DNA of 64,000 nt from an uncultured SAR86 cluster bacterium (lineage in GTDB: Bacteria > Pseudomonadota > Gammaproteobacteria > Magnimaribacterales > D2472). The DNA is taken from positions 262,685 to 326,684 of the forward strand of contig CACEAR010000001.1 of NCBI GenBank assembly GCA_902557575.1. Direction: 5' to 3'. Below, piece by piece: positions 21,080 to 25,468 of this stretch. Within the stretch, counting starts at the first letter, position 1. Every line of letters begins with the position of its first letter. Made by a program: the position numbers and the translations under genes. The notes beneath the pieces were generated by a model, which ran no database searches, was not told the origin of the DNA, and saw nothing but the letters and a program-made list of their open reading frames with translations.

Positions 21080-21155
21080 TGGTGCCCAGAGGTGGGATCG
21101 AACCACCGACACAAGGATTTTCAGTCCTTTGCTCTACCAACTGAGCTATCTGGGC
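21080..21155 (-). tRNA. tRNA-Phe (GAA)
   Basis: The minus strand reads GCCCAGATAGCTCAGTTGGTAGAGCAAAGGACTGAAAATCCTTGTGTCGGTGGTTCGATCCCACCTCTGGGCACCA, 76 nt. Anticodon loop CTGAAAA, encoded CCA, and a close match to E. coli tRNA-Phe. Confidence 0.95.
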
Positions 21156-23571: not shown

Positions 23572-24543
23572 TTATTTAGTAAGAGTTCCTACTAGATGAG
23601 ATAATATCTTATAAGGATCAGCATTAGATGCTGGTCTTCTATCTTCAAGATATCCATTCCAGTCATGCTCAACTGTGTAAACTGGAATTCTAATACTAGC
23701 ACCACGATCACTGACACCATAAGAGAATTTATCAATGCTTTGTGTTTCATGAAGACCAGTAAGCCTCATGTCATTGTCAGAACCATATGAAGCAATTCCT
23801 TCTGCATGGACTTCTCCTAACTTATCACAGATTGAAGAAAATAATTCTTCAGATCCACCAGTTCTCATTTCTTCATTTGAGAAATTACAATGCATTCCTG
23901 AACCATTCCAATCTCCTGTTTTAGGTTTTGGATGAATATTTACACCAACACCGTATTCTTCAGCAATCTTATAAAGAAGATATCTTGATACCCAAAGATC
24001 ATCAGCGGCCTTAATGCCCTTACCAAAACACTGATATTCCCATTGTCCAAGGGCAACCTCAGCATTTGTCCCAGTTAGGGTTATACCAAGATCTAGACAA
24101 GCTTCTAAGTGAGCATCTGAGATTTCTCTACCAACAACATTACCTGCACCAACACCACAATAATATTCTCCTTGAGGTCTTGGTGTTCCATCTTCCCATC
24201 CTAGAGGTTCACCTGTTTGCGGATCAGTAAAGAAGTATTCTTGTTCAAAGCCAAACCACCACTCATCTGTAACCACTTCAGCAGCTGCAGCTCTAAAGTT
24301 TGAGGGATGAGTTGTATGATCTGCTGCTTGAACTTGAGTCATAACTAAATCGTGCCCGTTTGGATTTGCATAGGTTTGCACCGGTAAAAGTAAGCAGTCT
24401 GAACTCCCACCTTCAGCTTGCTGAGTTGAAGATCCATCAAAAGACCAATCTGGAGGAGTATCGTCCTCAGTGGCTTTAACTTTGCTTCGCATCATTGGTT
24501 CTGGCTGATACCCATCAAGCCATATATATTCAAAAGTATTCAT
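23572..24543 (-). CDS. glnII: glutamine synthetase type II (eukaryote-like GSII)
   Basis: 323 aa; FEYIWLDG, DGSSTQQAEG, FGFEQEYF, NAEVALGQWEYQ, HPKP...DWNGSGMHCNFS and RRPASNADPY are GSII blocks. AGGAG SD 7 nt upstream. Confidence 0.9.
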   Translation of the reverse strand: MNTFEYIWLDGYQPEPMMRSKVKATEDDTPPDWSFDGSSTQQAEGGSSDCLLLPVQTYANPNGHDLVMTQVQAADHTTHPSNFRAAAAEVVTDEWWFGFEQEYFFTDPQTGEPLGWEDGTPRPQGEYYCGVGAGNVVGREISDAHLEACLDLGITLTGTNAEVALGQWEYQCFGKGIKAADDLWVSRYLLYKIAEEYGVGVNIHPKPKTGDWNGSGMHCNFSNEEMRTGGSEELFSSICDKLGEVHAEGIASYGSDNDMRLTGLHETQSIDKFSYGVSDRGASIRIPVYTVEHDWNGYLEDRRPASNADPYKILSHLVGTLTK

Positions 24544-24618
24544 AAATATCTCCTAAAAAATAAATTTTCATGCATTTTTTAGTCTGCAGGATTTTTGAAG
24601 TTAAACTCGATCGGGTTT

Positions 24619-24675
24619 AACGGTTGCGTTCCTTCAGCTTTCGCTTACTTCCGACTCTAAAAGAGTTGAACGATT
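24619..24675 (-). promoter_or_regulatory. glutamine riboswitch aptamer (glnA RNA motif), gene-proximal copy
   Basis: Minus-strand RNA: AUCGUUCAACUCUUUUAGAGUCGGAAGUAAGCGAAAGCUGAAGGAACGCAACCGUU. P1 is CGUUC/GAACG, a hairpin is ACUCU/AGAGU, the core CGGAAGUA is conserved, a second hairpin is AGC-GAAA-GCU, followed by GAAGGAACGC. Confidence 0.8.
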
Positions 24676-24688
24676 AACGTTATCCTGT

Positions 24689-24747
24689 TAACGGGCGCGT
24701 TCCTTCGGTTTTCACCTACTTCCGACTTCCTAAGAAGTTGAACGATT
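24689..24747 (-). promoter_or_regulatory. glutamine riboswitch aptamer (glnA RNA motif), gene-distal copy
   Basis: Minus-strand RNA: AUCGUUCAACUUCUUAGGAAGUCGGAAGUAGGUGAAAACCGAAGGAACGCGCCCGUUA. The architecture matches the proximal copy, with compensatory changes in both hairpins (ACUUC/GAAGU; GGU/ACC). Confidence 0.8.
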
Positions 24748-24895
24748 TTAACTCTTCACTCAAATAATTGAGTTCCTTTTTAACCATGGAAATGGTGCAA
24801 ATTAAAATGCTAAGTAAAGTTTACTCAAATGAAATAACTAAGCAATAGACATATTAATATTAAGGGCAATATTTTCAGAATTGTTACAAGAATTT

Positions 24896-25468
24896 CTAAA
24901 GTTTCATAAATTTCGAGATTATTTCTAGCTTTTCTTTGAAAGAATCAAAAGAATGACTTCCTCCATTAACGATACAAAAATTACAGCCCTTATAGAAATC
25001 AAGAGTGTGCTTAAATGGAATAACATCATCACCAGTTTCAATTAGCACTAAATAGTTCGATGGAGATTTTATTTTTGAGACATTTTTCAGCTTCAAGATT
25101 TCAAGATCTTTTTTAGTTAGGTAGAATTCTTCATTTGTTGAATAGTTAGTATTCTTTCCTAAATACATTTCCATTCCTAAATATGGATTTGATGCGGGGT
25201 TGATCAAAACAGCATTTGAATCAAACTTTTCAGCAAAATAAGATGCATAAAAACCGCCAAGTGAGCTTCCAATGAATAATCTATCACCTTCATTCTCTTT
25301 TACTAAACTTTCTAATTGAATGAAAGATTTTTCTATTGAGTTATCAATATTTGGGATATGGAGATGAACATTTGGGAATTTCTCTTTTATAAAATCATCA
25401 AAGATTATTGCCTTTGTTGAATCAGCAGATGATGCAAAGCCATGAAAATAAAATATATTTTTATTCAA
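24896..25468 (-). CDS. yqiA: YqiA-family esterase (alpha/beta hydrolase, UPF0227)
   Basis: 190 aa; FYFHGFASS start, nucleophile elbow GSSLGG, and a C-terminal GGSH. Follows a yqiB-like gene, as in E. coli. Confidence 0.75.
   Translation of the reverse strand: MNKNIFYFHGFASSADSTKAIIFDDFIKEKFPNVHLHIPNIDNSIEKSFIQLESLVKENEGDRLFIGSSLGGFYASYFAEKFDSNAVLINPASNPYLGMEMYLGKNTNYSTNEEFYLTKKDLEILKLKNVSKIKSPSNYLVLIETGDDVIPFKHTLDFYKGCNFCIVNGGSHSFDSFKEKLEIISKFMKL

Follow-up and report, generated by a model that had tools for sequence, protein, structure and literature searches.

Two glutamine-I riboswitch aptamers stand in tandem before a type II glutamine synthetase (GS) gene, glnII, on the minus strand of the window, by which we mean the whole 64-kb stretch of SAR86 DNA that was analysed. 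By covariance-model match, pocket residues and pairing pattern, 24694-24746 and 24623-24674 are genuine tandem glutamine-I (glnA RNA) aptamers on the sense strand of glnII. Located in the 5′ leader of the glnII mRNA, they would exert direct product feedback on GS synthesis, with repression at high glutamine as the likeliest form, and we put the probability of this reading at about 0.6. The element belongs to a known riboswitch class, in a known arrangement and in the genetic context that gave the class its name; it is not a new class of element. The locus adds only a little to this: SAR86 as a named host, a type II GS as target, a distinct sub-architecture of the leader, and evidence suggesting replacement of an NtrC/sigma-54-type control region.

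Glutamine-I aptamers upstream of glnII

Read on the minus strand, positions 24746-24619 consist of two repeats, exactly as the earlier note on this DNA had quoted them from the letters. That note had taken both for the glnA RNA motif, and the Rfam model of the motif, RF01739, bears this out. Cmscan at the gathering threshold, repeated on the leader alone, places aptamer 1, the distal copy as seen from the gene, at 24746-24694 of the minus strand with 70.7 bits (E=1e-13), and aptamer 2, the proximal copy, at 24674-24623 with 68.4 bits (E=4.6e-13). Both matches are full-length (model positions 1-53 of 53) and score about twice the gathering score of 35. The sole other gathering-level Rfam match in the 64 kb is a tRNA-Phe at 21080-21155, and for the glutamine-II model, RF01704, the window scores 14 bits against a gathering score of 33.

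Aptamer 1 is built from P1 (CGUUC/GAACG), P2 (ACUUC-UUAG-GAAGU), the junction CGGAAGUA, P3 (GGU-GAAA-ACC) and GAAGGAACGC, and aptamer 2 has P2 ACUCU-UUU-AGAGU and P3 AGC-GAAA-GCU. Both copies thus show the three-stem junction architecture of RF01739, in which P1 CGUUC/GAACG is combined with variable P2 and P3. In the cmscan alignment the copies differ in P2 (ACUUC/GAAGU versus ACUCU/AGAGU) and in P3 (GGU/ACC versus AGC/GCU) with pairing preserved, and the compensatory character that had been ascribed to these differences extends well beyond the two copies. Over 99 unique aptamers from the window and marine metagenomes, the five outer pairs of P2 were formed in 97.4% of cells and the three pairs of P3 in 98.3%, compared with 60.8 and 80.1% when 3′ arms were shuffled among sequences as a control. 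None of 1000 shuffles matched the observed P2/P3 pairing, and 2-6 standard pair types occurred per position. Covariation is uninformative on P1, because this stem was fixed in the search pattern.

The list of glutamine-contacting residues was taken from the solved structure (PMC6698751). Both copies have the pocket residues C1:G59, G2:C58 and G22, the C after P1, and the E-loop strands CGGAAGUA and GAAGG. The C after P1 is presumably the partner in a long-range pair, following Ren et al. 2015. From membership in this family, both copies are expected to bind L-glutamine, which GS produces.

Target gene and host

The ORF at 24543..23572 on the minus strand encodes 323 amino acids with Gln-synt_N and Gln-synt_C domains (Pfam). 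Its product matches the NCBIfam GlnII model over the full length with 359 bits, under the curated equivalog cut-off of 500, and its best PDB match is the type II enzyme 4bax at 1.7e-87, with type I chains such as 1f1h at about 1e-9. By these matches the product of 23572..24543 is a divergent member of the type II glutamine synthetases, and the GSII named downstream of the aptamers in the earlier note was correctly recognised (about 1e-87 versus about 1e-9 for type I). The start codon AUG lies at 24541-24543 and the Shine-Dalgarno (SD) sequence AGGAG at 24550..24554, both on the minus strand. Aptamer 2 is 68 nt away from AGGAG; the same SD had been named before, with a spacing of about 75 nt that the measurement corrects. 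The leader of 352 nt is the longest ORF-free stretch of the window, and other apparent gaps contain ORFs or a tRNA, so that its description as the only long non-coding stretch holds.

The near neighbours of the locus are mutY, a histidine phosphatase, a rhodanese, glnII, yqiA, a DUF1249 gene, ubiA, ubiC, a dicarboxylate symporter and an H+-pyrophosphatase, and gcvP, spoT, lptD and purH lie farther away. The glnII locus is ordinary chromosome. GC content is 31-36% throughout the window and 34% in the genome. The GS of the window is 99% identical to that of the SAR86 SAG AG-359-G23, and labels of the 80 best genomic GS matches are nearly all SAR86, Gammaproteobacteria or Pelagibacteraceae, with one Pseudomonadota. 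On sequence grounds the host of the tandem leader is SAR86 (Magnimaribacterales), which ranks, among surface-ocean heterotrophs, with the most abundant groups. A gammaproteobacterial, non-cyanobacterial host had been proposed correctly, and only its likeness to Pseudomonas has to be given up for a SAR86 genome of 34% GC.

The GSII protein of the window is 89-94% identical to those of L008-L082, while the flanking YqiA and rhodanese are only 32-47% identical. In SAGs labelled Pelagibacteraceae, GSII is 89-91% identical, and a PII gene lies directly upstream in the two that were inspected (L014, L080). This likeness of GSII may originate from extreme constraint or from horizontal exchange of glnII, possibly between SAR86 and SAR11; mislabelled SAGs are another possibility.

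Tandem leaders and NtrC/sigma-54-type leaders at the same locus

The distribution survey covered the 80 species-representative genomes with the closest GS (L003-L082). Aptamers occur in only five of them, L003-L007, and all five have the tandem leader. Together with the window these genomes form a discrete clade by flanking genes: YqiA identity is 87-95% among its members and does not exceed 47% with any other locus. A second group, L088, L167 and L182, carries the same leader design at the same locus; in L167 the synteny runs from mutY to the pyrophosphatase, flanking proteins are just 30-65% identical, and GSII is 80% identical. As judged from these genomes, the tandem element occurs in two distant SAR86 lineages and is absent from many others sampled.

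NtrC with sigma-54 is the classical device for switching GS on under nitrogen scarcity. For comparison we used 75 riboswitch-less leaders located between yqiA and glnII, taking about 330 nt upstream of the GSII start. Dyads were scored as TGCAC-N7-GTGCA with at most one mismatch, a pattern which we take to be the NtrC-site consensus. Such a dyad is found in 41 of the 75 leaders, and a consensus match to the sigma-54-type -24/-12 element, TGGCAY-N5-TTGCW, in 24; from base composition, either motif is estimated to occur by chance in <1% of leaders. The SAR86E locus (L079; 2670-3000) has two perfect dyads and TGGCATAGATGTTGCA, and the nearest outgroup of the window clade by flanking genes, L032, has both a dyad and a sigma-54-like element. 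Loci with neither motif are mostly labelled Pelagibacteraceae.

In the window and L003-L007, neither the NtrC dyad nor the -24/-12 (GG-N10-GC) element was found, relaxed pattern included. Look-alikes of sigma-54/NtrC sites in the window leader were inspected by eye and rejected for wrong spacing, in line with the negative motif scan. At the orthologous locus, an NtrC/sigma-54-type control region thus seems to have given way to the riboswitch leader. If this is true, it is a natural case of an RNA sensor displacing NtrC/sigma-54 on one gene, at one locus, in one bacterial order. Sister lineages with NtrC/sigma-54-type leaders at the same locus offer a clean natural comparison of RNA and protein nitrogen sensing in streamlined genomes.

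Two leader architectures in marine metagenomes

Among 120 pattern matches in the metagenome sample, true aptamers were found at 59 loci, with 50 doublets, 2 triplets and 10 single copies by the strict pattern. Tandem arrays are the norm in this sample. Linkers are 18 nt in 33 cases, 17 nt in 8, 15 nt in 3, 19 nt in 1, 24-25 nt in 7 and 7 nt in 2. After the first aptamer, linkers this short can hardly accommodate a conventional platform of its own, which fits poorly with a class of 'two complete riboswitches'. The genes downstream of arrays encode AmtB (27), type I GS (17), GSII (4), a circularly permuted ATP-grasp protein (3) and a Gcw_chp porin-like protein (2, namely L157 and, by its near-identical N-terminus, L153).

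Two architectures can be distinguished. The commoner type A leader has a linker of about 15-18 nt (up to 19) that starts with CAUGC, and it precedes amtB or a type I GS gene. The type B leader, to which the window belongs, has a 24-25-nt linker with a hairpin, a CCGUUAAAC hairpin and a TGCA...TGCA motif.

Type A leaders (L084-L202, e.g. L099 3709-3920 and L139) also stand before the circularly permuted ATP-grasp gene; the GC content of their contigs is 25-41%. Their linker, CAUGC-AAA-GUUAU, has its complement in AUARCUA-GCAUG, a conserved segment 3′ of aptamer 2. Pairing of these segments would enclose aptamer 2 in a long helix, to be followed by a hairpin of variable sequence and then the SD. 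Because the sequences of this helix hardly vary, covariation is uninformative here.

L153 (305-540) and L157 (8079-8320) carry triple aptamers, with linkers of 7 and 24 nt, upstream of the Gcw_chp porin-like gene. From aptamer 1 to just short of the SD, their module is 88-90% identical to the window leader, and the flanks of L157 (trxB, ftsK, serS) have a gammaproteobacterial look. Glutamine riboswitches may control a second operon in SAR86.

Constraint and anatomy of the leader

Constraint was compared over six genomes, the window and L003-L007, as mean pairwise identity. The conserved block extends from TTAGCAUUUUAAUUUGCACC to the start codon (24544..24813, minus strand). Identity reaches 98.6% over the final 265 nt of the leader, versus 74.5% at third-codon positions of GS (minimum 64%), and the few substitutions sit in hairpin loops and linkers. 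The 79 nt from aptamer 2 to the start codon are 99.2% identical, and this segment is therefore functional. The strongly conserved leader of about 270 nt provides a defined sequence for testing the direction of the switch.

The following elements are all on the minus strand and are given in the direction of glnII. Upstream hairpin A (ACCAU-UUCC-AUGGU) occupies 24783-24796 and upstream hairpin B (ACUCAA-UUAU-UUGAGU) 24758-24773. At the same place L167 has a stem of GCCC/GGGU instead of ACUCAA/UUGAGU, with pairing retained, and this altered stem hints that the transcript begins upstream of both hairpins. The AUG in the first upstream hairpin opens an ORF of 23 codons (24716-24787) that extends into aptamer 1. 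It was rejected as a leader peptide: the 23-aa frame, 24787..24716, is without SD and has 11 codons in L167 and 4 in L088. Nor was any other conserved small ORF found in the leader. From 24754, GAGUUAAAAU continues into aptamer 1.

The linker between the aptamer cores, 25 nt in the window, contains hairpin 1 (CGUUA-ACAGGA-UAACG, 24678..24693), whose 5′ arm CCGUUA is similar to the 5′ strand of P1. Hairpin 1 is a 5-bp, A/U-rich stem without U tract and without SD. It is present in every type B leader with an invariant stem, and covariation speaks neither for nor against it. Immediately 3′ of aptamer 2, hairpin 2 (GUUAAAC-CCGAUCGA-GUUUAAC, 24600..24621) is predicted in every fold. It is conserved in L088, L167, L182, L153 and L157, where a single A-to-G change leaves a G-U pair; in its loop two bases vary and UCGA is invariant.

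A conserved pyrimidine element, AACUUCAAAAA (24592..24602), contains ACUUC and is a candidate anti-SD; it is complementary to the SD (CUUC/GGAG) and also to GAAGU of the aptamer core. Further downstream, all type B leaders share a TGCAG-ACUAAAAAA-TGCA motif (24571..24588; UGCAG-N9-UGCA in RNA). The spacing of its tetramers is 7, 9 or 10 nt among type B leaders, and an A run and then a U run follow, with the A-run/U-run segment at 24553-24582. The motif suits neither a DNA operator of fixed spacing nor a stable RNA hairpin. We rejected it as an NtrC dyad, which it does not match in pattern.

Candidate expression platforms

No intrinsic terminator was found in 24300-25100, as the earlier note had also seen, and hairpins 1 and 2 are A/U-rich without U tracts. 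A simple scan of the minus strand for a sigma-70-like promoter was negative. Four diverged leaders were folded by partition function as unconstrained, aptamer-enforced and P1-forbidden ensembles. Accessibility of the SD or the start codon did not change consistently between the states with aptamers enforced and with P1 forbidden in these four leaders, which agrees with the earlier impression of no obvious SD-sequestering helix.

An RNAalifold consensus of 6 GSII leaders proposes a long-range helix of 11 pairs between 24743-24754 and 24598-24609. Its candidate 5′ strand is the 5′ flank GAGUUAAAAUCG (24743..24754, minus strand), which overlaps C1 and G2 of P1 in aptamer 1, and its candidate 3′ strand is CGAGUUUAACUU (24598..24609, minus strand), the 3′ arm of hairpin 2. 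With C1 and G2 of P1 drawn into it, the helix would be incompatible with hairpin 2 and with a complete glutamine pocket. Ten of the 11 pairs are invariant, and only one strand changes in the outermost pair, which is G-U or A-U. We rejected the helix as covariation-supported, there being no compensatory change in any pair; the only hint for it is the invariant UCGA beside two variable bases in the hairpin 2 loop.

The ACUUC element is predicted to form nine pairs with the SD region in L167, where it is the best SD partner (-10.5 kcal/mol by duplex prediction). It is not the best partner in the window (outside the top five) or in the L088 group. As the top SD partner in L167 only, it was rejected as an established anti-SD and is kept as a hypothesis. 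A pairing of the linker loop CAGGAU with AUCCUG (24587-24592) can form in the window and in L153/L157; it is missing from the L088 group and was dropped as not conserved.

Sign of the regulation

Repression at high glutamine is rather probable, a sign that we infer from the regulatory swap. It is expected because other SAR86 lineages carry NtrC/sigma-54-type sites at the orthologous position. What counts against an OFF switch is that all characterised glutamine riboswitches are ON switches (PMC6212724).

The main competitor of repression is that the same tandem riboswitch acts as an ON switch, in which glutamine raises GSII translation, as for cyanobacterial gifB, and GSII is made under nitrogen plenty. 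All tested glutamine-I and glutamine-II riboswitches activate (PMC6212724), and our folding results give no argument for sequestration of the SD in the bound state. However, the orthologous gene in most other SAR86 lies behind NtrC/sigma-54-type elements, which are active under nitrogen limitation, and activation of a biosynthetic enzyme by its own product would be physiologically odd. In SAR11, one Amt protein was seen only in nitrogen-replete cells with mRNA unchanged, and a glutamine-activated RNA was proposed (PMC3870248). The amt intergenic regions of SAR11 are 125 and 146 nt (PMC2704228), too short for a tandem leader, so the element there may differ, and we rejected these proteomics as a guide to the sign. 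Activation is on balance unlikely, yet it has to be taken seriously.

Mechanism of the readout

The readout most likely acts once transcription is under way, on translation initiation or mRNA stability, via the 79 nt after aptamer 2. The two aptamers probably serve one shared platform rather than two independent ones, because they are only 25 nt apart.

In our working model, the strand CGAGUUUAACUUC would pair with the 5′ flank of an aptamer and invade the C1-G2 pairs of P1 in the glutamine pocket; in the alternative state the same strand would pair locally as hairpin 2. Glutamine would lock P1 and favour hairpin 2, and the CUUC element, once released, could pair with GGAG of the SD. This strand-exchange and anti-SD model is doubtful. 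Three results count against an OFF mechanism of this kind: SD accessibility does not change consistently, other partners of the SD outrank the anti-SD in the window, and the helix is without covariation. The wider proposition, which combines the first OFF glutamine riboswitch, two aptamers on one shared non-canonical platform (with CGAGUUUAACUUC strand exchange) and an RNA sensor displacing NtrC/sigma-54 in one order, is tentative and falls somewhat short of even odds.

Instead of a shared platform, the leader could hold two complete riboswitches in series, with hairpin 1 as platform for aptamer 1 and hairpin 2 for aptamer 2. A review predicts such 'pseudo-cooperative' behaviour for glutamine doublets (PMC9481103), and a similar CCGUUA hairpin after each aptamer suggests that the repeat unit is an aptamer plus a hairpin. 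But the linkers are short, 25 nt here, 15-18 nt in 44 of 54 other linkers and 7 nt in triplets, and hairpin 1 is a stem of five A/U-rich pairs with no U tract or SD; no terminator-like site was found. We regard this arrangement as quite improbable. The least probable reading is that the aptamers lie outside the glnII mRNA, through a promoter downstream of them (e.g. near the 24571-24588 motif), as a separate small RNA or as a decaying relic: although a TGCA-type motif, as in riboswitch-less leaders, does stand between aptamer 2 and the SD, its spacing of 7, 9 or 10 nt is ill-suited to a dimeric DNA-binding site, the scan of the minus strand found no promoter-like site, the aptamers and flanks are nearly invariant over six genomes with changes confined to loops, and a lineage with flanking proteins of only 30-65% identity shares this leader design at the same locus.

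Relation to known glutamine- and glycine-responsive systems

Ames and Breaker (2011) reportedly also treat the glnA RNA motif, or glutamine-I riboswitch. The motif owes its name to the genes that it was seen to precede in cyanobacteria and marine metagenomes, which encode glutamine synthetase, glutamate synthase, PII and ammonium transporters, and some copies were tandem already in that description (PMC2864571, Weinberg et al. 2010). A survey of 2022 lists 157 glutamine doublets and 4 triplets and predicts 'pseudo-cooperative' behaviour (PMC9481103), and a long-read study of 2025 found RF01739 within structural variants of SAR86 MAGs (PMC12379486). The surprise that the earlier note expressed at the context was therefore overstated: the link to GS and the tandem copies date from 2010 (PMC2864571), doublets have been catalogued (PMC9481103), and SAR86 MAGs are on record (PMC12379486).

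The closest relatives are the glnA RNAs of marine metagenomes, which share with the window the aptamer, the tandem habit, the association with GS and nitrogen genes and the low-GC marine sequence. They differ in that their host was not known (PMC6212724), whereas here it is SAR86, with a type II GS and a type B leader. Klahn et al. 2018 found GS-linked copies only in environmental DNA and stated that the effect of glutamine on glnA and the taxonomy of the carriers were not known (PMC6212724); the earlier note had likewise treated the sign of a GS-linked switch as unsettled. The question of Klahn et al. on the carriers of GS-linked glutamine riboswitches is now answered for one architecture, in SAR86.

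In cyanobacteria, Klahn et al. 2018 (PMC6212724) showed that glutamine turns on the expression of IF17, a GS inhibitor, through these switches. The glutamine-I riboswitch of Synechocystis gifB shares the aptamer class and the ligand-contact residues with the window, and it puts GS activity under control of glutamine, as the window leader would. In contrast to the window, gifB has a single aptamer and an ON switch, and its target is the GS inhibitor IF17 (PMC6212724). In the window two aptamers precede GS itself, and the opposite sign would be expected.

NtrC/sigma-54 control of proteobacterial glnA/glnII has the same target gene and the same nitrogen/glutamine signal, and in most other SAR86 the same position. 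It is a protein-based transcriptional activator, whereas the window clade has RNA sensors and neither the dyad nor the -24/-12 element.

In the tandem glycine riboswitch, two like aptamers also stand close together upstream of one gene, and the window resembles it in a readout that is probably shared. Glycine aptamers make defined tertiary contacts with each other and have one expression platform; we know of no inter-aptamer tertiary contacts for glutamine doublets. Unlike the glycine tandem, glutamine doublets are filed as pseudo-cooperative (PMC9481103). The glutamine-II riboswitch (Downstream-peptide, RF01704) has a glutamine pocket nearly identical to that of glutamine-I (PMC6698751), but it differs from the window in its pseudoknot fold and its restriction to marine picocyanobacteria.

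Matches on viral contigs

A phage origin of the module was rejected, as the only true match among viral contigs is the same SAR86 leader. This contig (L206, IMGVR_UViG_3300005074_000578) is a 6.3-kb IMG/VR entry with an identical SAR86 glnII leader, in which the GSII frame stops after 146 aa; it is probably misclassified or chimeric. Matches to the aptamer core on viral contigs (L211-L330) number at least 120, with 12 in tandem among the matches listed. Glutamine riboswitches have been reported in cyanophages and pelagiphages, and this abundance on viral contigs agrees with that.
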